Sequence record: MN850579.1
DNA: 64,000 bases
Direction: 5' to 3' (one strand)
From: Escherichia phage mogra
This document shows positions 3,625 through 49,195 of this stretch, piece by piece. A model generated the notes under the pieces. That model was not told the DNA's origin. It saw only the letters and a list, made by a program, of their open reading frames with translations, and did no database searches. The position numbers and the translations under genes were made by a program. The first letter of the stretch is position 1. Every line of letters starts with the position of its first letter.

Positions 3625-3987
3625 ATGAAATATCATGTATATGCTGATTTTGAAGCAAATCCTTCTAAAGACCCTGATTGTCGTTTGATACGCAGACCAT
3701 TTGATTCAGCAGCCCAAGCATGGGCTTGGATTAAAACTTGTACTCCTTCTTACACTTTCTTTGAAGTGGTAGATGATAACGGTGTTCTGCATCCAGAACC
3801 TACAGAAACTATTAATTTCCTTCTGTTTGCTGGTTATGACTGTTATCCTCTTGGTGGTATTGACGACCTTGTTGCTATAGGAAAAACTGTTGAAGCTCTT
3901 CGCGAAATTTATAAAAACGCGGAAGAAAATTTTGACTGGTATCATATCGTTGATGCTCATACCTTTGAAATGGTGGAACATTCATGA
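3625..3987 (+). CDS. hypothetical protein
   Basis: ATG 3625 overlapping upstream stop; 120 aa. Confidence 0.55.
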   Translation: MKYHVYADFEANPSKDPDCRLIRRPFDSAAQAWAWIKTCTPSYTFFEVVDDNGVLHPEPTETINFLLFAGYDCYPLGGIDDLVAIGKTVEALREIYKNAEENFDWYHIVDAHTFEMVEHS

Positions 3988-4274
3988 TTCTTTATGCTAA
4001 AGTATCGTCCATTGAGAACGGATATGAAAGCGACCAACGAGCAGCTAAAGCGTTAGTTGATGACTATGGTATTCTGACTATCTTTGAGGTTGAAAAGGTT
4101 TATATCGACCGTTCATCTTCACAAGTTAAATTACTCTGTGAAGACGTTAAATTTAACACAGTTAACTTTGATTTCTTTATTGAAACAGAAAAAGGCCCTC
4201 TTGAATATGATATTTTCAAGAACCCTTTGAAATTACGTTGCATTGAATATAACTACATTAATATGGTACGGTAA
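3984..4274 (+). CDS. hypothetical protein
   Basis: ATGA overlap with upstream ORF; 96 aa. Confidence 0.55.
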   Translation: MILYAKVSSIENGYESDQRAAKALVDDYGILTIFEVEKVYIDRSSSQVKLLCEDVKFNTVNFDFFIETEKGPLEYDIFKNPLKLRCIEYNYINMVR

Positions 4275-4370
4275 AACGTAATTTGCTTTAAGAATTATGT
4301 GTTATTATTAATCTACCCTCTATTACCAAAGGTGCTCCCTCAAGTGCCTTTCATAATAGAAAGTTATTTA

Positions 4371-4445
4371 GGCCCTGTAGCTCAATGGGAGAGCTGTCAG
4401 CTCATAACTGATAGGTAGCTGGATCGAAACCAGCCAGGGCCACCA
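4371..4445 (+). tRNA. tRNA, anticodon CAU (Met or lysidine-modified Ile), with encoded CCA
   Basis: Cloverleaf by hand: acceptor GGCCCTG/CAGGGCC, D-stem GCTC/GAGC, anticodon loop CTCATAA, T-stem GCTGG/CCAGC, 3-prime ACCA. Confidence 0.8.
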
Positions 4446-4545
4446 ATTCGCGGTGAGTACGCTCTTAGGTAGGTAAGTTGTTCGAATAAGGGTTAAAAGT
4501 AGAACCTACAAACGAGTAACCCTGAAACACCCAAAGCCGCATCAT

Positions 4546-4622
<77 letters not shown>

Positions 4623-4640
4623 ACTTCAAGTGAGGAAAAT

Positions 4641-4985
4641 ATGAAAGGCAATATTTATTTGGTAGTTCATGATTTAACGTTTTATTTTAACGAACAGGAT
4701 ACAGTTATTTCCGACCGGTTGATTAATTCGTTATATCAACACGCTGATTACGTTTATTTTAAAAATGAATTAGGACATTGGAAGTTTCTTAAAAACCGTT
4801 CCGGGTTAACTAGTTTTGAATACTTTGACCGTAAAGACCTTTTAAACGAAATTCCATTACAACATCGGTTCCAGAAACGCGAATCACTATACTATTGTCG
4901 CCATATACCAAATGCTGAATGTGTTTATGAAGCGATTAATCTATGGCGTCGACGTCGAGAGCAAATTGATGATATGCCAAAATAA
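4641..4985 (+). CDS. hypothetical protein
   Basis: ATG 4641 after SD gaggaaaa; 5-prime part of the listed ORF overlaps the tRNA and was trimmed. Confidence 0.5.
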   Translation: MKGNIYLVVHDLTFYFNEQDTVISDRLINSLYQHADYVYFKNELGHWKFLKNRSGLTSFEYFDRKDLLNEIPLQHRFQKRESLYYCRHIPNAECVYEAINLWRRRREQIDDMPK

Positions 4986-5340: not shown

Positions 5341-5805
5341 ATGAAATCATACGCTGAATTTTTGACTGAACAATCTAGTTCAGATGTAAAAGCCGCTGCG
5401 ATTGCAGCAATTCAAGCAGGTAAATATTCTTACAAAGACGCCTCTGATGAAGAACGTTTCCGTTTTATTAGAGATTTTAAAGCCGAAGGTTTTACTAATG
5501 CTAATACTGTTAGCCGAGTTTTTAAAAGCCTAGCTGCATCAGGTGAATTGTTCCAGAAAGCTACAGGTAAAGCACCTGCACCAAAAGCGGACCCTAAAGC
5601 CGCTCAAGAAAAAAATATCGCCAAAGGAATTATTTCTAAGTATGAAGCAATTCTTAAAGAGCTTTTAGTAATCAAAACAGAAGGCCAGAAACTGGCACGA
5701 GCACATAGCTTCAAAGATAATCCTCACGCTCATAGCCTTGAGTATGTTGAAGATATCCAAAAACTTATTAAAGACCGTATCTGGTCTGCTAAACAAATTA
5801 AATAA
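5341..5805 (+). CDS. internal-protein-like, variant CTS (MKSYAEFLTE)
   Basis: CTS-like N-terminus; Lys/Ala-rich; flanked by terminators. Confidence 0.5.
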   Translation: MKSYAEFLTEQSSSDVKAAAIAAIQAGKYSYKDASDEERFRFIRDFKAEGFTNANTVSRVFKSLAASGELFQKATGKAPAPKADPKAAQEKNIAKGIISKYEAILKELLVIKTEGQKLARAHSFKDNPHAHSLEYVEDIQKLIKDRIWSAKQIK

Positions 5806-5811
5806 TAGAAT

Positions 5812-5838
5812 GCCCCTTCCTTACGGTTGGGGCTTTTT
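5812..5838 (+). terminator. rho-independent terminator
   Basis: GCCCCTTCCTTACGGTTGGGGC then T5. Confidence 0.65.
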
Positions 5839-5871
5839 GGTATCTAGGGCATAAAAATATTTCATAAAGAT

Positions 5872-5900
5872 GTTTACTTCTTCCCTAGATGTGTTACTAT
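5872..5900 (+). promoter_or_regulatory. T4-type early promoter
   Basis: GTTTAC 5872; TACTAT 5895. Confidence 0.5.
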
Positions 5901-5928
5901 AGACCTATCAAAACATGGGGAGAATATT

Positions 5929-6432
5929 ATGAGTCTTTACACTGAACTGAATAAAAAATCTGAAGAATCTGCTGAAACTATTTTTAAAAACGTGCAAAAG
6001 CGTATTTTAGAAAAGATGTATAACGCTGCAGCTAAAGGTGAAAAATCTTGCCGGTTTCCGATTAGGTGTTCTTCAGATTTATGCGCAAATACTATTGAAT
6101 GGCTGGAAAGTGAAGGTCTTACGGTAGAGAAAAACCCGGCGACTTCTATTGATAGCGAATCATATATTAGTATTTCTTGGGATAAATCAAGGGTAGAAGA
6201 GAAAGATGGTGATTGGGTTGTAGATGTTAAAACTTCTGATGGTGGACGTTCTGTTGAAGTTTCAGCTGTAGTTAAAGGTACCCACGAACAAAGGACTTGG
6301 GGTTGGGGTGGTGAAGAAAAAGAAATTGTTCTTAGTGTGATTGCCAGGTCAACTAGTAATAAAATTGCACAAAGCATCATTGACGCTGCAATTGCTGAAG
6401 CAGAAAAAATTTGCAAAATTAAAAATAAATGA
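5929..6432 (+). CDS. hypothetical protein
   Basis: 167 aa; promoter cassette upstream. Confidence 0.55.
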   Translation: MSLYTELNKKSEESAETIFKNVQKRILEKMYNAAAKGEKSCRFPIRCSSDLCANTIEWLESEGLTVEKNPATSIDSESYISISWDKSRVEEKDGDWVVDVKTSDGGRSVEVSAVVKGTHEQRTWGWGGEEKEIVLSVIARSTSNKIAQSIIDAAIAEAEKICKIKNK

Positions 6433-6491
6433 TGTACAAGCACCAAGGATGGTGATACTATAGACTTATCAACTACAGAGGAGTAAACAAA

Positions 6492-6656
6492 ATGACTACT
6501 TTAATTATTTGGTTCGATGAAAATGAAGAAACATACTGTGTGAATATTGGTGAAAGTCCAATGCCTGAATTTGAATCCTCAGATAAAAACTCTGTTGTAT
6601 CTTGGGCTGAAGGTTATAAAGCAGCTAAAGGTGACGTTGAAATAATTTACATCTAA
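6492..6656 (+). CDS. small hypothetical protein (54 aa)
   Basis: ATG after SD gaggag; below ORF-track length cutoff. Confidence 0.4.
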   Translation: MTTLIIWFDENEETYCVNIGESPMPEFESSDKNSVVSWAEGYKAAKGDVEIIYI

Positions 6657-20365: not shown

Positions 20366-20947
20366 ATGGCTAGTTTAATTTTTACCTATGCCGCTATGAA
20401 CGCTGGTAAGTCTGCTTCATTACTTACTGCCGCACATAACTATAAAGAACGTGGCATGGGTGTATTAGTTCTTAAACCGGCTATTGATACTCGCGATTCA
20501 AAAGGTGAAATAGTCTCTCGTATTGGTATTCGTCAGGACGCCAATATAATTACAAAAGACATGGATATCTTTGAATTCTATAAATGGGCTGCAGCACAAA
20601 AGGATATTCACTGCGTATTTGTTGACGAAGCTCAGTTCTTAACTACTGAAAAGGTGTATCAACTTAGTCGTATTGTTGACGTATACAATGTGCCGGTAAT
20701 GGCATATGGACTACGAACAGATTTTAAAGGTAATCTATTTGAAGGTTCTCAAGCATTAATGGCTATTGCCGATAAGCTTGTTGAACTTAAAGGGGTCTGT
20801 CATTGCGGTAAAAAGGCCACAATGGTAGCTAGAGTCACGGAAGACGGACTTCCAATTACAGATGGCAGTCAAATTGAAATTGGTGATACTGATAGATATG
20901 TGTCATTATGCCGGAAGCATTGGAACGATTTGACAGGGTTGTTATAA
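20366..20947 (+). CDS. tk: thymidine kinase
   Basis: FTYAAMNAGKSASLL P-loop; VDEAQF; C-terminal CHCG..C zinc site. Confidence 0.92.
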   Translation: MASLIFTYAAMNAGKSASLLTAAHNYKERGMGVLVLKPAIDTRDSKGEIVSRIGIRQDANIITKDMDIFEFYKWAAAQKDIHCVFVDEAQFLTTEKVYQLSRIVDVYNVPVMAYGLRTDFKGNLFEGSQALMAIADKLVELKGVCHCGKKATMVARVTEDGLPITDGSQIEIGDTDRYVSLCRKHWNDLTGLL

Positions 20948-21199: not shown

Positions 21200-21502
21200 A
21201 TGGCCTTAAGAGCGATAGCTGTCATGGCGATGCTGGGGTTTTTTGCAGCAACAACTCCTATCGTTGGTACTGCATATATCGACCCATATTTTGATAACTT
21301 TATGGAATCAGGGATTAAAAACGTATATACTTTGTTTGAAATTCAAAATGTCGAGAATTCTGAAAAATTCTATAAGTATATGGCAAAGCATTACAAAAAT
21401 AGTCCCTGTGATGATGCATTTGAATGTCATGAACAAGGCATAAAAACTGCCAGACAATTTGCCGAGTTCATGAAAATAAAATTAGAGCCTACATCTATCT
21501 AA
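21200..21502 (+). CDS. rI: lysis-inhibition regulator RI-like (antiholin)
   Basis: N-terminal signal-anchor MALRAIAVMAMLGFFAA; 100 aa; next to tk as in T4; resembles recalled T4 RI. Confidence 0.6.
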   Translation: MALRAIAVMAMLGFFAATTPIVGTAYIDPYFDNFMESGIKNVYTLFEIQNVENSEKFYKYMAKHYKNSPCDDAFECHEQGIKTARQFAEFMKIKLEPTSI

Positions 21503-22885: not shown

Positions 22886-23359
22886 ATGATTATCAATGAA
22901 AACTCTTGGCACTTTAAAATTTATGCCGCGTTCAATAGTACATGGAATCGCCCGAAAACGTTGTGTGCTTATTTTTGGAAAACGTTAATCCCGGTATTGG
23001 CTGTTTCAATTATTGGATTTGCGATTTTAGCAGCAGTCACAATCATTGGCCAGGAAATTTTAACTAAATTCTTTGTTTTTAGCAGTCTATGGACATTAGT
23101 TCCGGCCTCAATTGGTGTAGGCATTTTAATTGTAGCAGTCATGGCTTTTATTGCTACAGGGTTAGTAATTGGTCCGTCTTGGCTGTTAGACAAATATAAC
23201 GACAGAAAATATTATAAAGAAATTGAGCTCATTGCGCAAAACCAAGAACGAATTAAAAATGGACTTGAGCCTATTGAACGTAAGAAATCATTAATAGGCG
23301 AATACCTTAAAGCTCGTAAAGAAAAAGTCTGTCCTACTCTTGAATATAAGGCTAAATGA
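22886..23359 (+). CDS. membrane protein
   Basis: Several TM helices; SD aagga. Confidence 0.55.
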   Translation: MIINENSWHFKIYAAFNSTWNRPKTLCAYFWKTLIPVLAVSIIGFAILAAVTIIGQEILTKFFVFSSLWTLVPASIGVGILIVAVMAFIATGLVIGPSWLLDKYNDRKYYKEIELIAQNQERIKNGLEPIERKKSLIGEYLKARKEKVCPTLEYKAK

Positions 23360-24345
23360 TGAAAACAATTATGAAAGGCTACTTTGGTAGCCACCTTTAT
23401 GGAACGTCTACTCCTGAATCTGACGTCGATTTTAAAGAAATTTATGTCCCTCATGCTCGTGATATCTTGACCGGTAACGTTAAAGAACACATGAGCAAGA
23501 ACACGAATAACACATCTTCTAAGAACACAAAAGACGACGTGGACCATGAGTTGTATAGTCTCAAATATTTCTTTAAACTAGCTGCGGATGGTGAAACTGT
23601 CGCATTAGATATGCTTCACACTCCACAAAGTCTAGTAGTTAAATCTGATTTGCCTGATGTATGGAAGTATATTCAAGATAACAGGTCTCGTTTCTATACC
23701 ACTAACATGAAATCTTATTTAGGGTATGTCCGTAAGCAAGCTTCTAAATACGGTGTCAAGGGTTCTCGACTGGCTGTTCTTCGTCAAGCCCTTAAACGTT
23801 CTAATGAATGGGGACAATACTTTGATAATGGCGCAGTAATTCGTTTATCACATATGAAGAATGTTCTGCCTGTAGGTGAATTTGCTTCGTGGGTTGAAAC
23901 TGAAAACGAGAAAACAGGTAAGCAAACATTCTATAATCTGTTGGACCGTAAATTCCAAGACACATTAACCAATAAAGAGTTCAATGCCATCCTGGTTAAA
24001 CTAGAAGAGAACTATGGCGAACGTGCTCGTAAGGCAGAAGCTAACGAAGGTATTGACTGGAAAGCATTGAGTCATGCATGTCGTGGTGGACTTCAATTAT
24101 TGGAAATTTACAAAACCGGCGACCTGGTTTACCCACTTCAGGATGCTCCATTTATTCTCGATGTTAAGCTTGGTAAACATACGTTTAAAACTGTACAAGA
24201 ATTCCTAGAAGATATTGTTGACCAAGTTGAACAAGCATCAGAAAAAGCCGCTAAGAACGGTATGCAACAAAAAGTAGATATGAGTTTCTGGGACGACTTC
24301 CTTGAACAAGTCTATCTCGAAAATCATAATTCTTACTATAAATAA
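23356..24345 (+). CDS. nucleotidyltransferase-fold protein (Pol-beta superfamily-like)
   Basis: GSHLYGTSTPESDVDFK fits the GS...DxD NTase motif; C-terminal helical region. Confidence 0.55.
   Translation: MMKTIMKGYFGSHLYGTSTPESDVDFKEIYVPHARDILTGNVKEHMSKNTNNTSSKNTKDDVDHELYSLKYFFKLAADGETVALDMLHTPQSLVVKSDLPDVWKYIQDNRSRFYTTNMKSYLGYVRKQASKYGVKGSRLAVLRQALKRSNEWGQYFDNGAVIRLSHMKNVLPVGEFASWVETENEKTGKQTFYNLLDRKFQDTLTNKEFNAILVKLEENYGERARKAEANEGIDWKALSHACRGGLQLLEIYKTGDLVYPLQDAPFILDVKLGKHTFKTVQEFLEDIVDQVEQASEKAAKNGMQQKVDMSFWDDFLEQVYLENHNSYYK
24337..24344 (+). promoter_or_regulatory. candidate late promoter TATAAATA
   Basis: Exact octamer at the end of the upstream CDS, about 30 nt before ATG 24377. Confidence 0.35.
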
Positions 24346-24682: not shown

Positions 24683-24776
24683 AGGGGGTTAAAATATTTT
24701 TAAAAAGTAGTGTACATGCTTTTAGGATATGTTATTATAGACCTATCGAAACGAAATGAGTAAATTGGAGAATAAA

Positions 24777-25757
24777 ATGTTCAACGTTCAAATCAAAAAA
24801 GGTATCTATCGTAATAACGAAATCTCTGGTTCTTATGTTGCCACAAAGACCTGGTTCCCGGCAAAGCTTAATCCTGAATGTTCCCACTTAGGTGATGGTA
24901 AAATTTTCGTTATGATTGATGGTTCTGAACGTGGAGTATGGGTCTTCAAATCAGACATCGTAATGGAAGGAGTTGAGACGTCACCAGTTGCAGTTATTGA
25001 AAGCACTGAAGATATGAAAACTCGTATCAACAAACGCTTTAAAGTAATGAACATGATGACGAATGGCATTATCGATGGCAAAATTCGTTCACTCATTATT
25101 TCAGGTGCAGCTGGTATTGGTAAGACGTATTCTCTGGATAAAGCACTTAATAATGCTAATGATAACGGTTTCATCAAATACAAAAGCATTAATGGTAAAA
25201 TCTCCGGTATTGGCCTTTACGAACAACTTTGGCTCAACCGTGATGCAGACAGCGTTCTCTTAATCGACGACGTTGACGTATTCTCAGATATGGACATCTT
25301 GAACCTTCTTAAAGCAGCATTAGATACCGGCGATAAACGCAAAGTTTGTTGGAGCACTGCGTCATCTTATCTCGAGGATAAGGGTATTGATAAAGAATTT
25401 GAGTTTGAAGGTACTATCGTTTTCATTACAAACGTTGATATCGATAAAGAGTTAGAACGGGGTTCGAAACTTGCTCCACACCTTCAAGCTTTAGTATCTC
25501 GTTCAGTGTATCTCGACCTTGGAGTACACTCTAATGAAGAGATTATGGTTCGAGTTGAAGATGTAATATTATCTACTGACATGATGCAGAAACGTGGCCT
25601 GACGGATGCAGAAACGTACAAAGCATTGTCCTGGATGAAGGCTAATGTATCTCGTCTTCGCAATGTATCATTACGTACCGCTCTTTATGTAGCAGATTTT
25701 ATTTCAACTGATAAAGATGGTTGGGAGGAAATCTCTGAAGTAACTTTACTGAAATAA
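24777..25757 (+). CDS. AAA-type P-loop ATPase
   Basis: Walker A GAAGIGKT; Walker B LLIDDVD; ATG 24777 after SD ggag. Confidence 0.6.
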   Translation: MFNVQIKKGIYRNNEISGSYVATKTWFPAKLNPECSHLGDGKIFVMIDGSERGVWVFKSDIVMEGVETSPVAVIESTEDMKTRINKRFKVMNMMTNGIIDGKIRSLIISGAAGIGKTYSLDKALNNANDNGFIKYKSINGKISGIGLYEQLWLNRDADSVLLIDDVDVFSDMDILNLLKAALDTGDKRKVCWSTASSYLEDKGIDKEFEFEGTIVFITNVDIDKELERGSKLAPHLQALVSRSVYLDLGVHSNEEIMVRVEDVILSTDMMQKRGLTDAETYKALSWMKANVSRLRNVSLRTALYVADFISTDKDGWEEISEVTLLK

Positions 25758-26240: not shown

Positions 26241-26768
26241 ATGAACGCTAAAGATATTTTCAACCTGGTAAATTATAACGACGGTAAATTTAAATCTGAA
26301 GCACAAAGTAAGTTCTTTAATGACATTGCTTATGGTAACGAGATTACCGTGGACGGAGGTCAGATTTTCAAATCTCGCTGGAATTGGATTGTTATCATCG
26401 ATTCAGTTGGAATTGTGGAAGTCTACAAAAACACTAACAAAAAACGTACATTATTCTGGTCTCGTGAAACTAACGAGAAGTACAAAAAGGATAAAGCATC
26501 TCGTTTATCCAAAGTAACCCAGGAAGATATCGAGTTTATCAAGAAAGATATCGAGATGTACGAAAATTTAATCGCTGAAGACCAGGCAGTACTCGATAAG
26601 TTTGATGAAATTAAAGCTTCTCTTGAAATCCCTGACTTCATGAAAGAAACAGTAAACGAACGATACGCTCTCACTTCAGAACGTATTGCAAACTATACAA
26701 AACAGAAAGCAGAACGTATTAGTACTCTTCGGAAATTTGAAGAACGTTTAAAGACGGTTCACGCATAA
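26241..26768 (+). CDS. hypothetical protein
   Basis: SD ggaggt; 175 aa. Confidence 0.5.
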   Translation: MNAKDIFNLVNYNDGKFKSEAQSKFFNDIAYGNEITVDGGQIFKSRWNWIVIIDSVGIVEVYKNTNKKRTLFWSRETNEKYKKDKASRLSKVTQEDIEFIKKDIEMYENLIAEDQAVLDKFDEIKASLEIPDFMKETVNERYALTSERIANYTKQKAERISTLRKFEERLKTVHA

Positions 26769-26771
26769 ACG

Positions 26772-26795
26772 CTTTACCCAAGGACGGGTTATAAT
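26772..26795 (+). promoter_or_regulatory. promoter (CTTTAC -35, TATAAT -10) for first coiled-coil paralog
   Basis: CTTTAC 26772; TATAAT 26790. Confidence 0.45.
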
Positions 26796-26830: not shown

Positions 26831-27826
26831 ATGAGCATTACATCTGATGCGGTAAAACATGAAATTAATGGTTTATGTGCTTCACAGATTAAAGTGTGGT
26901 TTAAAGACCATAACGATCGCAGAGCACTTAATTATGAGCAAATTGCTATCCAAGTTCATCAATTACTGGTTAGTAAATTTGATTTTCATATGCCGTCTGA
27001 AATCTATACTAATCTGCCGCGAGCACTTATTAAAGCGTGTAAAGGTTATGGAAAATCAATGGCTGATGGAATCTTCAGCGCGCTGAATAAACTTAACGTT
27101 CTGTCGATGATTAACTCTAACAACATCCTGAGTAATCTAGGACGTACTGATTTGTTCGGACGTGAACAGTGTAAAATGCCTTTGAAATGGATTGTTGCTC
27201 ATCTTAACGAGAACCAAACACGTTTTATGGCCGTAACAGCACGTTTACAAATGGGCCTAGATCGTCAGATGAACTTTAAAACTCATCCACGTTATTCAGG
27301 TTCAACTGACTTTTATAAATGTGAGCTTCAAAAGGTTGGTGGCAAAACTGTCTTAGTAGTTCGTGTAACGTTTGAAGGACGTCGTCAAGGATATTTTGAC
27401 ATAATCGGCTCTGGACTTAAACATTGTGGATTTATCGACGAAGTTGATATCAAGCGAGACGGCATTGGATACCGTATTGGGTATGTTTGTACTCTTAAAG
27501 AAGAGATTTCAGGACCAGCTCCAGGACTAAAAGACGTTAGATATAAAGACGAGCTCGTTGAAGAAATAAAAGAAGTTGAATATGATATCAACCAAGAAGA
27601 TGCTCTTAAAGACCTTATTGATGAACTGAACCAAGACGTTATTCCGGTTCAGAAATTTGAATCAAAACATGCTGAGCAAATCAAATACTTTGAAGCTTTG
27701 ATTAACGAACTTAATGTAACTATTCAACAGACTGACGATGAAATCTCACGATTAGCAGGCTTAAACGGTAAAAATAAAACAGAACGAGCTAATCTTATTC
27801 AAGTAGTAAAACTTCTTAAGGAATGA
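26831..27826 (+). CDS. hypothetical protein with C-terminal coiled coil (1 of 3 tandem)
   Basis: 331 aa; own promoter; SD gaggaaa. Confidence 0.55.
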   Translation: MSITSDAVKHEINGLCASQIKVWFKDHNDRRALNYEQIAIQVHQLLVSKFDFHMPSEIYTNLPRALIKACKGYGKSMADGIFSALNKLNVLSMINSNNILSNLGRTDLFGREQCKMPLKWIVAHLNENQTRFMAVTARLQMGLDRQMNFKTHPRYSGSTDFYKCELQKVGGKTVLVVRVTFEGRRQGYFDIIGSGLKHCGFIDEVDIKRDGIGYRIGYVCTLKEEISGPAPGLKDVRYKDELVEEIKEVEYDINQEDALKDLIDELNQDVIPVQKFESKHAEQIKYFEALINELNVTIQQTDDEISRLAGLNGKNKTERANLIQVVKLLKE

Positions 27827-27827
27827 T

Positions 27828-27855
27828 GTACAACCAAGGATGGTTGGAGTATAAT
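27828..27855 (+). promoter_or_regulatory. promoter (TGTACA -35, TATAAT -10) for second coiled-coil paralog
   Basis: Shares CCAAGGATGGTTGGAGTATAAT with the 28822 cassette. Confidence 0.45.
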
Positions 27856-27881
27856 AAATTTTTCAACATGAGGAATATAAA

Positions 27882-28817
27882 ATGGCTTTTATTACACGTA
27901 GAGAACTTATCAAAGAATTTACCTCGAACGCATATACTCCAGGACCTAATCCTATCCGTATGCCTGTAAAGACTCCTGAAGAGATTGAGGAAGTCTGTTC
28001 ATATTATGGGATTACTTCTCGTAAGTTTACTCAATTTGAATGCGTTACTAACACACCCGTTAAAGAGTTCATTAAAAATGGTGAGTTCAGCCGTTTATTA
28101 GCCAAACAGAAACTTCGTAATTTTTGTATTGGTGGTGAAGGACAATATTTCGCTAAGCAGTTCCGGAATAACCTTAACAATCTGATGGCCATTGCTTCTC
28201 GTATTCGTCCTCAAGCAATTAACATGAAACATTTGAAATATACTTACGATAAGTTAGAAATCATGGTTATCAGTGAGAATGAGTTCACTCTTACGTATAA
28301 ACCTAAGAATGATAACGTTGCTCGTGTATTCCACCAAGCGTTGGAAGTTTTAGGTGATAATATCCACCAGATTAAAGCAATTTATTCTCGTGAGCTTAAT
28401 ATTATCGACCCTATCAAGAATAAGGGCCATATCGCTATCCAGGCTCGTGTATCTATTGGTAAAAAGGTTCCTGCGCCATGGTGGCACAAAGACTCTGAAT
28501 ACTATCAAAATCTTAAAAAGGAAAATGCAACGTTCGAAGCGTCAATTACTGCAACCCCAATTGGCCATGCTGAAGTTCTAGGTGCATATTCTACTGCTCC
28601 ATCTATACACATTTCACCGTCGACTAAACTGGAAATCTCTAACGGTCTTCTTCCTGCCGAAGATTACCATTATAATCAAATCAAGGCCACTGTAGACCAA
28701 CTATCCGTTGAACTTGACAAAGCACAAGCTAAGCTTCGTGATGCTCAACAAGTAGTTACCAAGCTCCAGTTGCAGTACTCTAAACTTTTTAACGCAATGA
28801 ATGCATTAAAATCATAA
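27882..28817 (+). CDS. hypothetical protein with C-terminal coiled coil (2 of 3 tandem)
   Basis: 311 aa; own promoter; SD gagga. Confidence 0.55.
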   Translation: MAFITRRELIKEFTSNAYTPGPNPIRMPVKTPEEIEEVCSYYGITSRKFTQFECVTNTPVKEFIKNGEFSRLLAKQKLRNFCIGGEGQYFAKQFRNNLNNLMAIASRIRPQAINMKHLKYTYDKLEIMVISENEFTLTYKPKNDNVARVFHQALEVLGDNIHQIKAIYSRELNIIDPIKNKGHIAIQARVSIGKKVPAPWWHKDSEYYQNLKKENATFEASITATPIGHAEVLGAYSTAPSIHISPSTKLEISNGLLPAEDYHYNQIKATVDQLSVELDKAQAKLRDAQQVVTKLQLQYSKLFNAMNALKS

Positions 28818-28821
28818 ATCA

Positions 28822-28851
28822 GTTTACAACCAAGGATGGTTGGAGTATAAT
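28822..28851 (+). promoter_or_regulatory. early promoter for third coiled-coil paralog
   Basis: GTTTAC 28822, 18 nt spacer, TATAAT 28846. Confidence 0.55.
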
Positions 28852-28881
28852 GAGAACCTATCTTAACGAGAGGAAAATATT

Positions 28882-29832
28882 ATGACACGTTCACATTACA
28901 TTGAATACTTTGCCGGTCTTATCGCTAACGTTCATGCCCAACGTGCTTCTGGTTCATTAGGATTTGATGTTCCACACCGAGATGTAGTAAGTGGTATTCT
29001 TCGCGATTTTGGTACATACACAGGCCAAGAAAATCATATCTGTAAAGATACTCAAAATGCATATTCTCATTCACTAGGGACGCTGCTTCAATGGTTCAAA
29101 CGTTCTCGTTTATTATCTTCTACTGTAGCTCGCGATAACATTAAAAACTTTATGAAACCGAGCTTTATTAAATCTGTGACATCTAAAACCGATTTGGTTG
29201 AATTCACTATTGTTAATGATGTTAAAAAGACTCATTTGGCTGATTGGTTATCTACCATTCCTGAAACTAAATTTGCTGATAAATTTGCTTGTGAATTCAA
29301 TAAACAAGTGAATATGCTTTTTAAACATTCTCGTAAATTATTCACTGGCGGTGATGGCCGTACAAATAAAGTTCATGTTAAAGATTGGGTTACTGCAGTA
29401 TTCAAACCAACTGGTAATGGTAACGCATCATTATCAATTGATATCCAGGTTCCTTATTACTACTCACGTAATCTCGGCACCATGAAAGCCGAAGAAATTA
29501 ATAAGCACAACAAAACTATTCGTTCGTTGTCTTATAAACTTATTACATTGTTAGAGACTATGGATGTTGTTGAAACGTTCGACGAATCCGAAGATAACGG
29601 TTCAATGTTATATAGTTCTCGTACCCGAATTAAGTTGAAGAACCCTAACGAGTATAAACTTAAGACTATTAAAGAACCTAAAGTAGAAAAAGTTGACAAC
29701 TTGAGCGAAGAACGTGAGTACCTCAAATCTCGTCTGAAAGAAGTCGAAGCCCAGATTGCAGAACAAACTAAATCGTTAAAAGCTCTGAATGCGAAAGCGG
29801 ATGGTTTACGAAATGCCATTGAGGTGTTATAA
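28882..29832 (+). CDS. hypothetical protein with C-terminal coiled coil (3 of 3 tandem)
   Basis: 316 aa; own promoter; SD gaggaaaa. Confidence 0.55.
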   Translation: MTRSHYIEYFAGLIANVHAQRASGSLGFDVPHRDVVSGILRDFGTYTGQENHICKDTQNAYSHSLGTLLQWFKRSRLLSSTVARDNIKNFMKPSFIKSVTSKTDLVEFTIVNDVKKTHLADWLSTIPETKFADKFACEFNKQVNMLFKHSRKLFTGGDGRTNKVHVKDWVTAVFKPTGNGNASLSIDIQVPYYYSRNLGTMKAEEINKHNKTIRSLSYKLITLLETMDVVETFDESEDNGSMLYSSRTRIKLKNPNEYKLKTIKEPKVEKVDNLSEEREYLKSRLKEVEAQIAEQTKSLKALNAKADGLRNAIEVL

Positions 29833-30137
29833 TGAAACTACGTCTTTTAGAGGATATTGATATGAGCACTAATCATGGCTTGGTTAAGTTTATTGATGAT
29901 AGTTCAAAGATTGAATTTGTTCAGCGAGATAAAATCCACGGTGAAGAAAAGTTCGTTCCTCCGGCATGGAACGAAATAATGAAAATGGTTGAACGACGTG
30001 AAAATGCTGCCAAATCGGCAGCAAAACATCCATGTCCGGAATGTGGAACTATCCAAGTCCAACTGGTTAACTGGGCCAGTGATAACTTGAAATTGAAATG
30101 CCGTAAATGCTTCCACAAATTTGAGAGAACATTATAA
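29832..30137 (+). CDS. zinc-ribbon protein
   Basis: CPECG...CRKC; TAATG coupling. Confidence 0.5.
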   Translation: MKLRLLEDIDMSTNHGLVKFIDDSSKIEFVQRDKIHGEEKFVPPAWNEIMKMVERRENAAKSAAKHPCPECGTIQVQLVNWASDNLKLKCRKCFHKFERTL

Positions 30138-30544
30138 TGAGATATAGCCTTCGTTGTTTTATCGCAGCTTTAGTTTTTGCTATTATTCCATTCATTTGGA
30201 ACAGCCAGAATACTTACATGGAAACTAAAGTAATTCCTGTGGAGGTAGTGGAATTAATCTCAGGCCAATCTACAGGAAAATATTCTAAATTAGAATTTAT
30301 TGCAGTCTATAAAGATGAGCAAGGACGAGTTTTTGACAGGCGTGTATCACCTTCGTTTTATACGCTTCTGAATAAAGGTGATACGATAGCTATAGAAATT
30401 CGTGAGATGGATATCAAACAAACTACTAAAGATAACTTGATTTGGTTCTTTGGTACAGTGTTGTTGGTTTCTATCTGTATCACAGGTTTTATTACATGTA
30501 TTGTATTTGGCATTGCATATTTAATCGATGAAAGGAAAAAATAA
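30137..30544 (+). CDS. membrane protein
   Basis: N- and C-terminal TM helices; TAATG coupling. Confidence 0.5.
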   Translation: MRYSLRCFIAALVFAIIPFIWNSQNTYMETKVIPVEVVELISGQSTGKYSKLEFIAVYKDEQGRVFDRRVSPSFYTLLNKGDTIAIEIREMDIKQTTKDNLIWFFGTVLLVSICITGFITCIVFGIAYLIDERKK

Positions 30545-30807
30545 TGTTTAAAGTGTACGGGTATGACTCTACTATTCATAAATGCATTTATTGTGATAAT
30601 GCGAAACGATTGCTGACTGTTAAGAAACAGCCGTTCGAATTCATTAATGTTATGCCAGAAAAAGGTGTATTCGATGAAGAAAAAATTGCTGAGCTTCTGG
30701 CTAAGCTTGGACGTGAAACACATGTTGGATTGACGATGCCTCAGGTGTTTGCTCCTGATGGAACTTCGATCGGTGGCTTTGATCAACTGCGAGAATATTT
30801 TAAATGA
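30544..30807 (+). CDS. nrdC: glutaredoxin/thioredoxin NrdC
   Basis: CIYC active site; 87 aa; T4 synteny. Confidence 0.8.
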   Translation: MFKVYGYDSTIHKCIYCDNAKRLLTVKKQPFEFINVMPEKGVFDEEKIAELLAKLGRETHVGLTMPQVFAPDGTSIGGFDQLREYFK

Positions 30808-31921: not shown

Positions 31922-32395
31922 ATGTTATTATCAGGCGCAAAATATAAAGAAGAAAAACAAAAATTTTATGATGCACAGAACGGTAAGTGTCCTATTTGCC
32001 ACCGTGAATTAGACCCTGATGTTCAAGGTAACCATCTTGACCACGACCACGAATTAAACGGGCCAAAAGCTGGTAAGGTTCGTGGTTTACTATGTAACCT
32101 GTGCAATGCAGCAGAAGGCCAAATGAAGCATAAGTTCAACCGTTCTGGTCTTAAAGGTCAAAACGTTGATTACCTCGAATGGCTTGAATCTCTTCTTGCT
32201 TATTTGAAACAAGATTATTCTGATAATAATATCCATCCTAATTTTGTTGGAGATAAATCAAAGGAATTTTCTCGTTTAGGAAAAGAGGAAATGATGTCCG
32301 AGATGCTTCAAAGAGGATTTGAATATAATGAATCTGATACTAAAACACAATTAATAGCTTCATTCAAAAAGCAGCTTAGAAAGAGTTTAAAATGA
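31922..32395 (+). CDS. 49: recombination endonuclease VII gp49
   Basis: KCPICHREL..HLDHDHELNGPKAGKVRGLLCNLCN; near-identical to T4 endo VII. Confidence 0.92.
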   Translation: MLLSGAKYKEEKQKFYDAQNGKCPICHRELDPDVQGNHLDHDHELNGPKAGKVRGLLCNLCNAAEGQMKHKFNRSGLKGQNVDYLEWLESLLAYLKQDYSDNNIHPNFVGDKSKEFSRLGKEEMMSEMLQRGFEYNESDTKTQLIASFKKQLRKSLK

Positions 32396-48519: not shown

Positions 48520-48559
48520 TATAATGCCAAGGACGGCCAACTAATTAAATGAGAGAAAT

Positions 48560-49195
48560 ATGAAAACTACACCAATCACTATCGCTATTGACGCAATTGT
48601 AAAACAAGCTTCATCTCTTGCCACTATGGCTAAAGTAATTAGTCAAAACCATGCTCGTTATAATGCTATTCTAGAAACTCTTCGACGCCCTGGACTTAGT
48701 AATTATGAAAGCCGGGTAATTATTACAGGTGTTGGTAAGAATGCTAATATCGCAACTAAAGCTTCCGAGACTTTTGCTTCACTAGGTATTCCTAGCATGT
48801 ATTTGAATACCGGGCATTATTCTCATGGTGACGCAGGATTTATTGCACCTAATGATGTATTAGTTCACATCAGTCGTTCTGGTAAGACTGAAGAAATGAT
48901 AGGTGTTGCTAAACATCTTCGTATGATTCGTCCTCAGGTTAAACAGATTCTGTTACATTGTAACCCTGACATTCCACAAGAATACGAAGCTCTTTTTGAT
49001 TATACGTTCTGTACCGGTATCGCGGTAGAAGTTGACGAGAACTCTTTAGCTCCGACAATGTCTACTACATTGTTGTTAGCGCTTATCGATACGTTCGCTA
49101 TCAACCTTTCGTCTGAACGTGGATTTACCTCTAATGATTTCCTTAAGTTCCATCCAGGCGGTGCACTAGGTGCCATGTTACGAGGCGAACAATGA
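48560..49195 (+). CDS. SIS-domain sugar-phosphate isomerase, arabinose-5-phosphate isomerase-like
   Basis: ITGVGKNANIATKASETFASLGIP and ISRSGKTEE resemble KdsD/GutQ-type SIS motifs. Confidence 0.7.
   Translation: MKTTPITIAIDAIVKQASSLATMAKVISQNHARYNAILETLRRPGLSNYESRVIITGVGKNANIATKASETFASLGIPSMYLNTGHYSHGDAGFIAPNDVLVHISRSGKTEEMIGVAKHLRMIRPQVKQILLHCNPDIPQEYEALFDYTFCTGIAVEVDENSLAPTMSTTLLLALIDTFAINLSSERGFTSNDFLKFHPGGALGAMLRGEQ

Follow-up and report, generated by a model that had tools for sequence, protein, structure and literature searches.

We analysed three consecutive genes of Escherichia phage mogra (sequence record MN850579.1) in a window of 64 kb, i.e. the whole stretch of DNA under study, to which all coordinates refer. 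We propose that these genes, termed ORF1 to ORF3, are the counterpart of the T4 genes nrdC.6/.5/(.4)/.3, and that they form an array of tandem paralogs that lie behind promoter-hairpin cassettes and play a role in counter-defence; we assign this proposal a probability of about 0.6. An earlier note, made from the DNA letters alone, had placed the three open reading frames (ORFs) between tk and nrdC and had described them as a diversified array of paralogs, each with its own promoter and a C-terminal coiled coil. The coordinates that it gave were exact for all three ORFs:

26831-27826, + strand: ORF1, NrdC.6 family, 331 aa; phrog_2257, precomputed Pfam PF26899
27882-28817, + strand: ORF2, NrdC.5 family, 311 aa; Pfam DUF7235 (PF23882), phrog_2351
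28882-29832, + strand: ORF3, NrdC.3 family, 316 aa; phrog_1435, precomputed Pfam PF26897

The array is enclosed by the genes for thymidine kinase TK (20366-20947, upstream) and the glutaredoxin NrdC (30544-30807, downstream), and the placement in the tk-nrdC interval is thus correct. It is already known that T4 and RB69 carry orthologs of these genes, that cassettes of this general kind exist and that one family member has an anti-defence role. The superfamily link of NrdC.5 to NrdC.3, NrdC.4 and NrdC.6 appears to be uncurated so far, as Pfam keeps three separate families for ORF1-3. The covarying hairpin and the loss of a cassette at it likewise appear to be uncurated.

Orthology and paralogy of the array proteins

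The DNA of the array region is 96-98% identical to that of Mosigvirus phages such as pEB20, APCEc01, JS09 and ATK47. We thus assign the locus to Mosigvirus, i.e. to a T-even phage of the RB69/JS09-like type. By profile matches, identity and position, ORF1, ORF2 and ORF3 are the orthologs of T4 nrdC.6, nrdC.5 and nrdC.3, respectively. ORF1 matches the hidden Markov model (HMM) of phrog_2257 over the full length (E=2e-126) and is about 29-31% identical to full-length T4 NrdC.6; with tblastn, homologs were found in 741 phage records, where the full-length identity of the T4 type is ~31%. ORF2 covers profile positions 1-307 of 307 of PF23882 (E=5.8e-117, 391 bits with a cut-off of 30). T4 NrdC.5 matches the same Pfam model (420.6 bits, E=5.3e-126) and, as ORF2, belongs to phrog_2351. 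ORF2 and T4 NrdC.5, which share both models over their full length, also share the position after nrdC.6, the head-linker-tail layout described below, the C-terminal ending ...KL.NA.NAL(K/N) and the status of an early gene with its own (predicted) promoter; their identity, however, is 23%. The position of ORF2 between nrdC.6 and nrdC.4/nrdC.3 is conserved in T4, VR7, Bp7, RZ, moha and the window, and its Mosigvirus subtype was found in 132 phage records only. ORF3 matches phrog_1435 over the full length (E=4.7e-102) and is 56% identical to T4 NrdC.3 over 316 aa. This PHROG holds both NrdC.3 and NrdC.4; T4 carries both proteins, whereas the window contains only the NrdC.3 ortholog. Within the block, divergence is fastest in the array genes, judged by the identity to T4 (29%, 23% and 56% for ORF1, ORF2 and ORF3 compared to 78-88% for NrdC.11, NrdC.10, NrdC.8 and NrdC).

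For ORF1, the overall identity to T4 NrdC.6 of 29% rises to about 60% in the tail. The two proteins differ in length: ORF1 has 331 aa, the T4 reference 275 aa and the protein of most Tequatroviruses 295 aa. The T4 reference gene (NC_000866.4, locus 5567-6394, minus strand) is shorter than the 295-aa orthologs (compared locus 3961-4848), and the conserved tail that it lacks, ...SSKAKSEREKLIKIVDLLKS, is readable past the stop codon in another frame. Thus, nrdC.6 of the T4 lab strain seems to be a frameshifted, tail-less allele.

The three proteins share one layout. The earlier note had described a globular region of about 250 aa followed by a tail of 50-70 aa; we recovered this layout and refined its limits to about 220-250 aa for the head, 20-40 aa for an indel-rich or disordered linker and 45-55 aa for the tail. 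A C-terminal coiled coil is predicted for each protein from heptad-rich stretches in a crude a/d-position score (ORF1 281-310, ORF2 259-311, ORF3 269-316) and, for ORF1 and ORF3, from terminal helices in AlphaFold2 (AF2) models. The sub-threshold Pfam matches in the tails are exclusively to coiled-coil families. The tails are located as follows:

27599-27823, + strand: helical heptad-rich tail of ORF1 (aa 257-331), end ...ERANLIQVVKLLKE
28656-28814, + strand: heptad-rich tail of ORF2 (aa 259-311), end ...SKLFNAMNALKS
29686-29829, + strand: heptad-rich tail of ORF3 (aa 269-316), end ...DGLRNAIEVL

Every family has the common C-terminal motif L-x-x-[AV]-[ILMV]-x-[ALV]-L-K. For instance, the tails end in ...LIQVVKLLKE, ...LFNAMNALKS and ...LRNAIEVL(K), and T4 NrdC.4 ends in ...LEQALQLIK. 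In the last 28 residues of the NrdC.3, NrdC.4 and NrdC.5 families, the ungapped similarity peaks in register (9.7-19.4) and is lower at heptad-preserving offsets; for the NrdC.6 family, the in-register similarity is marginal. Within families, the identity of the tail compared to that of the head is 58-60% vs 22-28% for NrdC.6, 58-64% vs 42-48% for NrdC.4 and 66% vs 55% for NrdC.3.

Pairwise BLASTP among ORF1, ORF2 and ORF3 yielded no matches, and hhalign of shallow close-homolog profiles was negative because these profiles have a Neff of about 1.2. Deeper non-redundant family alignments were built from 21 phage and IMG/VR loci (the IMG/VR retrieval contributed 7 close loci only), which resulted in profiles for NrdC.6 (C6, the family of ORF1, n=9), NrdC.5 (C5, ORF2, n=12), NrdC.4 (C4, n=9) and NrdC.3 (C3, ORF3, n=16). 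With full-length profiles, C4 was linked to C3 (98%, E=2.9e-13, 232 columns) and C5 to C4 (95.5%, E=1.5e-8, 200 columns); the probabilities were 95.6% for C5 with C3+C4 combined and 95.4% for C3 with C4+C5. Since coiled coils can give spurious similarity, the profiles were compared again without the tails, and column-shuffled controls were added. The heads alone linked C3 to C4 (score 90.0, 97.9%, E=4e-13; shuffle maximum 20.5), C5 to C3+C4 (score 49.4, 90.8%, P=1.2e-6; shuffle maximum 19.5) and C5 to C4 (score 38.6, 65.4%, P=5.9e-5; shuffle maximum 19.2). Over the heads-only controls, the shuffle means were 13-14 and the maximum was 20.5, where column shuffling is a liberal null. Furthermore, the HMM of the ORF3 family reaches a NrdC.4-family protein that is 43% identical to T4 NrdC.4 (library-wide E=5.4e-6), and this match covers residues 3-243, i.e. 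the head. The deep profiles thus relate the heads beyond the coiled coil, and the description of the genes as a diversified array of paralogs is firm for ORF2 and ORF3 and probable for ORF1.

It could be argued that the three genes are unrelated ORFans that were joined by cassette shuffling, and that their similarities are artefacts of coiled coils and AT-rich coding. The empty pairwise BLASTP and the three separate Pfam families would agree with this. However, the tail-free head profiles are significant and score far above the shuffles, PHROGs already merges NrdC.3 with NrdC.4, and the library-wide NrdC.4 match lies outside the tail. We consider this explanation very improbable overall; for ORF2 and ORF3, it is largely refuted. 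ORF2 and ORF3 are classified as paralogs by profile homology, with a transitive link via NrdC.4, a protein that the phage itself lacks.

For ORF1, the evidence comes from the comparison of C6 with C4+C5 combined, which resulted in a heads-only score of 38.5 (66%, P=5.5e-5) that none of 150 shuffles reached (mean 13.0, sd 2.1, maximum 20.1). The aligned part is the following:

27053-27244, + strand: helical core that ORF1 has in common with the NrdC.4 and NrdC.5 families (residues 75-138), KSMADGIFSALNKLNVLSMINSNNILSNLG ... NENQTRFMAVTAR

The shared core contains two motifs, ...S-R-L-L-S...R/K-D-x-I-L-x-N-F... (in ORF1 ALNKLNVLSMINSNNILSNLG) and F-R-x-x-x-x-x-I-L-x-x-A-S-R/K... (in ORF1 NQTRFMAVTAR).

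Several of the homology results count against our proposal. The direct heads-only comparison of C5 with C3 was not significant (19%, P=0.0013), and the link between ORF2 and ORF3 thus runs through NrdC.4. The single-family head comparisons of C6 are weak, with 31% for C4 and under 1% for C5 and C3, and the link of ORF1 consists of a core of ~65 residues with an hhalign probability of 66%. The AF2 models have a low confidence (mean pLDDT, the predicted local distance difference test, of 46.7 for ORF1 and 51.3 for ORF3), and a common fold is not demonstrated by them.

The weak single-family comparisons would be expected if only NrdC.5, NrdC.4 and NrdC.3, and thus ORF2 and ORF3, were paralogs, with ORF1 as an unrelated ORFan that acquired a similar tail and cassette via shuffling or convergence. 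In agreement with this, C6 has no counterpart of the N-terminal M-(K)-T-R-x-x-Y-I-x-x-F common to C3, C4 and C5, and its in-register tail similarity is marginal. On the other hand, the score of C6 with C4+C5 equals that of the direct heads-only comparison of C5 with C4 and lies about 12 sd above the shuffles, and the aligned core is where the other families have their most conserved motifs. ORF1 also has the same size, the head-linker-tail layout, the predicted order of secondary structure, the ...LLK ending and the promoter with the CCAAGGA hairpin. An unrelated ORF1 is therefore unlikely in our view, though far from negligible; ORF1 is probably a more distant paralog, with a confidence of roughly two in three.

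The structure predictions are consistent with the shared layout as far as the tails are concerned: long terminal helices were predicted, whereas no fold was assignable at this low pLDDT. In ORF3, a single helix at 275-315 is the best part of the model (block pLDDT 66-81), and the model of ORF1 has terminal helices at 281-309 and 316-330. The order of elements is alike in the two low-confidence models, with a helical N-terminal part, a beta-hairpin/helix/beta-hairpin, a linker and long C-terminal helices. A Foldseek search of BFVD with the ORF3 model was uninformative and returned its own ortholog and noise. When the ORF2 and ORF3 families were aligned jointly with MAFFT, the head motifs did not line up correctly, and this alignment was dropped for AF2.

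Promoter-hairpin cassettes and gene loss

Each array gene is directly preceded by a short cassette that combines promoter-like boxes with a hairpin:

26771-26795, + strand: cassette upstream of ORF1; GCTTTA 26771-26776, hairpin ACCCA-AGGA-CGGGT 26776-26789, -10 TATAAT 26790-26795
27827-27855, + strand: cassette upstream of ORF2; -35 TGTACA 27827-27832, hairpin CAACCA-AGGA-TGGTTG 27831-27846, -10 TATAAT 27850-27855
28823-28851, + strand: cassette upstream of ORF3; -35 TTTACA 28823-28828, hairpin CAACCA-AGGA-TGGTTG 28827-28842, -10 TATAAT 28846-28851

The motif that the earlier note had reported for two of the promoters is indeed common to both. The 22-mer CCAAGGATGGTTGGAGTATAAT has exactly two copies in the window (at 27834 and 28830), where shuffles expect 0, and it lies within a perfect 27-bp direct repeat, TACAACCAAGGATGGTTGGAGTATAAT, whose copies at 27829-27855 and 28825-28851 bracket ORF2. 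The claim that each gene has its own promoter agrees with consensus matches for all three genes, with a change of type for the first. The site upstream of ORF2 (TGTACA-17-TATAAT) matches the sigma70 consensus in 10/12 positions, and the site upstream of ORF3 (TTTACA-17-TATAAT), with 11/12, is the best of an 11-kb scan. The site upstream of ORF1 has a TATAAT without a -35 box at 17 bp; instead, GCTTTA is found 13 nt before it. We take this box at 26771-26776 to resemble the MotA box of T4 middle promoters, and by consensus, the predicted promoter of ORF1 looks like the middle rather than the early type. The ORF1 site nevertheless keeps the CCAAGGA hairpin core seen in the other two cassettes, and NrdC.6 genes of other genera are preceded by the same element, whose arms have changed in a compensatory way.

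A hairpin of the form N5-6/AGGA/N5-6 precedes the array genes in all four genera that carry them, with arms that differ in sequence but are complementary. The arm pairs found across genera are AGCCA/TGGCT, CCACA/TGTGG, TACCA/TGGTA, ACCCA/TGGGT, TTCCA/TGGAG and ATCCA/TGGAT. Among 16 distinct hairpin variants, which are not phylogenetically independent, 85.4% of the cells are paired compared to 59.3% when shuffled (0/500 shuffles reach this value). Double-sided changes occur in 4/6 hairpin pairs, and slid registers pair in 20-42%. In the cassettes of ORF2 and ORF3, the hairpin is the minimum free energy structure and lies between -35 and -10. The strength of the hairpin and the nature of the promoter evidence lower our confidence: the stem has 6 bp with -6.9 kcal/mol, a z of about 0 and no U-tract, the variants share ancestry as stated, and the promoters are consensus matches only. 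We also considered the hairpin as an intrinsic terminator and rejected this, as it is weak, lacks a U-tract and was not called by a terminator scan.

Two further features of the cassettes were observed. First, the ORF2 and ORF3 cassettes carry GGAG, the target of the T4 endoribonuclease RegB, immediately 3' of the hairpin and ahead of the -10 box (27846-27849 and 28842-28845), and most NrdC.3 and NrdC.4 cassettes of other genera do so as well (...GGAGTATAAT). If transcription reads through, the RNA might be processed at this site. Second, the AGGA-loop hairpin core is found at two other places in the window. At 6438-6457, it lies between TGTACA and TACTAT before a 54-aa ORF (6492-6656, phrog_5461), and at 48522-48541, it lies just after a TATAAT before a 211-aa gene that is similar to arabinose-5-phosphate isomerase (48560-49195).

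Published PeSL/PmSL cassettes pair an early promoter with a stem-loop, which is often located between -35 and -10; they occur in hyperplastic regions of T4-type phages, where they mediate modular shuffling (PMC2839356, Arbiol et al. 2010; PMC4122927, Comeau et al. 2014). On comparing these properties, we classify the repeated cassettes of ORF2 and ORF3 as PeSL-type elements. They are predicted sigma70-like early promoters with a stem-loop between -35 and -10, they stand directly upstream of non-essential ORFs in a hyperplastic region, they fit the T4/PST-type promoter consensus TTTACW-N17-TAYWAT, and they are repeated, such that recombination between copies removes the intervening gene. The hairpin itself differs, as it has the form N5-6/AGGA/N5-6 and neither the G-tract/C-tract of RB49 nor the AGNA...TCNT of PST/T4. 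Furthermore, a terminator function was shown for the PeSL stem-loops of RB49, whereas such a role is doubtful for the short and weak hairpin of the window.

The loss of a gene at such a cassette is seen in the Mosigvirus phage ESCO47, which lacks ORF2 and has a single chimeric cassette, TACAACCAAGGA|CGGATGGA. Left of the loop, this cassette corresponds to the sequence upstream of ORF2, and right of the loop to that upstream of ORF3. The chimera thus places the deletion junction within the hairpin, which indicates that ESCO47 lost ORF2 by recombination inside the hairpin.

The membership of the array differs among phages. In T4, four genes of similar size, nrdC.6,.5,.4 and.3, follow one another, and the arrays of the groups compared are the following:

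Tequatrovirus:.6/.5/.4/.3
Mosigvirus, window:.6/.5/.3 (no NrdC.4 gene)
Mosigvirus ESCO47:.6/.3
Gaprivervirus and Dhakavirus:.6/(small ORF)/.5/.4, with NrdC.4 but no NrdC.3

In several phages, remnants of array genes were observed: ACG-C40 (locus 3805-4213) has a stub of NrdC.5 and the tail of NrdC.3 left, Pinarejo (locus 4001-4135) only the tail of NrdC.6, Manna only the tail of NrdC.4 and TH54 only the tail of NrdC.5. Read as deletion products, these C-terminal remnants show frequent internal deletions in the array. In the phage collection, all array families and the neighbouring NrdC.8 are confined to the four genera; a search for distant arrays with NrdC.8 as an anchor led to the same genera, to which NrdC.8 is limited. 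When the HMM of the ORF3 family was run exhaustively against 1.84 billion representative proteins, five matches only were returned, and by this measure the ORF3 family is without a wider family beyond these five.

Proposed counter-defence role

For one of the array families, NrdC.5, a function has been described in T4. A T4 deletion clone no longer plates on ECOR17 or on MG1655 carrying dsr1 of ECOR17, and T4 nrdC.5 in trans restores its plating on dsr1+ cells (Srikant, Guegler & Laub, eLife 2022; PMC9391042). Dsr1 is a SIR2 NADase whose TPR sensor is reported to recognise the phage major capsid protein (preprint PMC12803255). In addition, NrdC.1 counters Septu (bioRxiv 10.1101/2025.11.20.689424), Gp49.2 counters OLD (PMC13096335), and Pin, encoded by a neighbouring gene, counters Lon by annotation. 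Since T4 NrdC.5 counters Dsr1 and its neighbours counter Septu, OLD and Lon, we infer that ORF1-3 most likely act as a diversified anti-defence array, in which the heads vary and the conserved tails oligomerise. ORF2 would be the anti-Dsr1-type member of this array. A role in an arms race fits the fast divergence of the heads alongside the conservation of the tails, and also the variable presence of array genes and the remnants left by deletions.

According to our model, the array genes would be expressed early or in the middle period of infection from their individual promoter-hairpin cassettes. The fast-diverging head would bind and neutralise a host immune protein, and the better-conserved coiled-coil tail would oligomerise the inhibitor. 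ORF2, as the NrdC.5 ortholog, would overcome Dsr1, and ORF1 and ORF3 would aim at other defence proteins or alleles. The PeSL-type cassettes would supply short homologies at which genes are lost or swapped, and this loss or swap would lead to the different membership of arrays among genera. DSAD1, an inhibitor of DSR2 (PMC10981675, PMC11087589), offers an analogy only, as a phage protein that binds and blocks a SIR2-type NADase defence. It comes from another phage group, has no sequence relationship to the array proteins and is not known to lie in a paralog array or to have a coiled-coil tail.

Two points reduce our confidence in the functional part. ORF2 is so divergent from T4 NrdC.5 (23% identity) that the anti-Dsr1 specificity, an activity shown for the T4 protein only, may not be conserved, and the published function within NrdC.3-.6 is confined to NrdC.5. 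One could also explain the array as a paralog family with a role in host take-over or housekeeping, e.g. as modulators of host transcription, nucleoid or metabolism, where the effect of NrdC.5 on Dsr1 would be indirect, via NAD metabolism or timing. The evidence in PMC9391042 is a genetic rescue, and a direct interaction of NrdC.5 with Dsr1 is unreported. Moreover, the early non-essential genes of T4 are mostly heterogeneous in their role, and our PDB sequence and profile searches and the searches of NCBIfam and PADLOC yielded no meaningful relative of the array proteins and no similarity to a known anti-defence fold. What argues against this explanation is that the rescue is specific to dsr1 cloned into MG1655 and that proven anti-defence genes surround the locus. 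In addition, fast divergence of heads and presence/absence among close phages are typical of an arms race and not of housekeeping. We therefore regard the host take-over explanation as improbable, with a small share of our expectation.

A more speculative extension of the anti-defence array starts from the shared tail ending L-x-x-A-h-x-x-L-K. The paralogs might co-assemble via their tails into one homo- or hetero-oligomeric stalk that carries different heads. Such a stalk would act early in infection as a modular multi-headed decoy that, ahead of the real triggers, occupies the sensor domains of several immune receptors of the host, and the cassettes would serve to swap heads. Candidate targets would be the TPR sensors that Dsr1 and Avs7 have in common and that recognise the major capsid protein. 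We consider this decoy to be a long shot.

By this grouping, T4 NrdC.5, the sole characterised protein with its action against Dsr1, is one of three to four tandem paralogs. In hundreds of T-even phages of the type used in therapy, NrdC.3, NrdC.4, NrdC.6 and the divergent NrdC.5 of Mosigvirus thereby become concrete candidates in which new anti-defence specificities may be found, and the suggested domain logic is a variable head with a constant oligomerising tail. For a coliphage, a natural case of PeSL-mediated loss of a cassette is documented here, in which the hairpin is well defined and covaries, and such losses would help to explain host-range differences among near-identical T-even phages.

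Neighbouring genes and annotations

Besides TK and NrdC, the following genes surround the array, with NrdD as a further gene downstream:

21200-21502: antiholin rI, upstream of the array
23356-24345: NrdC.11, an RlaP-type nucleotidyltransferase (PF10127, E=7e-13), 78% identity to T4
24756-25757: NrdC.10, a P-loop AAA/STAND-like ATPase with a possible C-terminal helix-turn-helix, 78% identity to T4
26241-26768: NrdC.8, 175 aa, the direct upstream neighbour of the array, 83% identity to T4
30137-30544: nrdC.7-like membrane protein, 41% identical to T4 NrdC.7
31922-32395: endonuclease VII, downstream of the array

The gene order is unlike that of T4, as the nrdC.7-like gene follows nrdC.2 here, whereas nrdC.7 precedes nrdC.6 in T4. 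Homologs of NrdC.1, the reported anti-Septu protein, and of NrdC.4 were not found among the window ORFs between 22334 and 32395. Scans with Rfam and for tRNAs resulted in no matches in the 24-33 kb part of the window. The C-terminal 30 residues of NrdC.8 (146-175) are heptad-like with weak matches to coiled-coil Pfam families; homology of NrdC.8 to the array proteins was not seen.

The label 'thioredoxin', which the three genes carry in many GenBank records, was rejected, as no thioredoxin-fold match in Pfam or NCBIfam was found for ORF1-3, and the Glutaredoxin match of the region is restricted to the true nrdC (30544-30807). The label is attributed to name propagation from nrdC.x. In a paper on DRT1, T4 nrdC.8 is listed as down-regulated and termed reductase, which is probably another name-based misreading. 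In the record of phage ESCO10 (OM386655.1), the product names have slipped relative to the genes; for example, the NrdC.5 homolog is called 'endonuclease II', the NrdC.4 homolog 'aerobic NDP reductase small subunit' and nrdC 'dihydrofolate reductase'. Automated transfers could be misled by this annotation artefact.

The small ORF of 62-71 aa between NrdC.6 and NrdC.5 is present in moha (4699-4899) and in Gaprivervirus and Dhakavirus (e.g. VR7, 5733-5948), but not in the window. Lastly, we observed possible further relatives of the array. With the low-confidence ORF3 model as a query, Foldseek matched BFVD A0A023W506, an uncharacterised 370-aa protein of the more distant T4-like Serratia phage PS2 (probability 0.97, E=6.5e-4), over 299 columns with 15% identity. 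PHROGs of similar length (phrog_26858, 33957 and 12512) have weak matches to T4 NrdC.4 and NrdC.5. More distant array members may exist outside the four genera.

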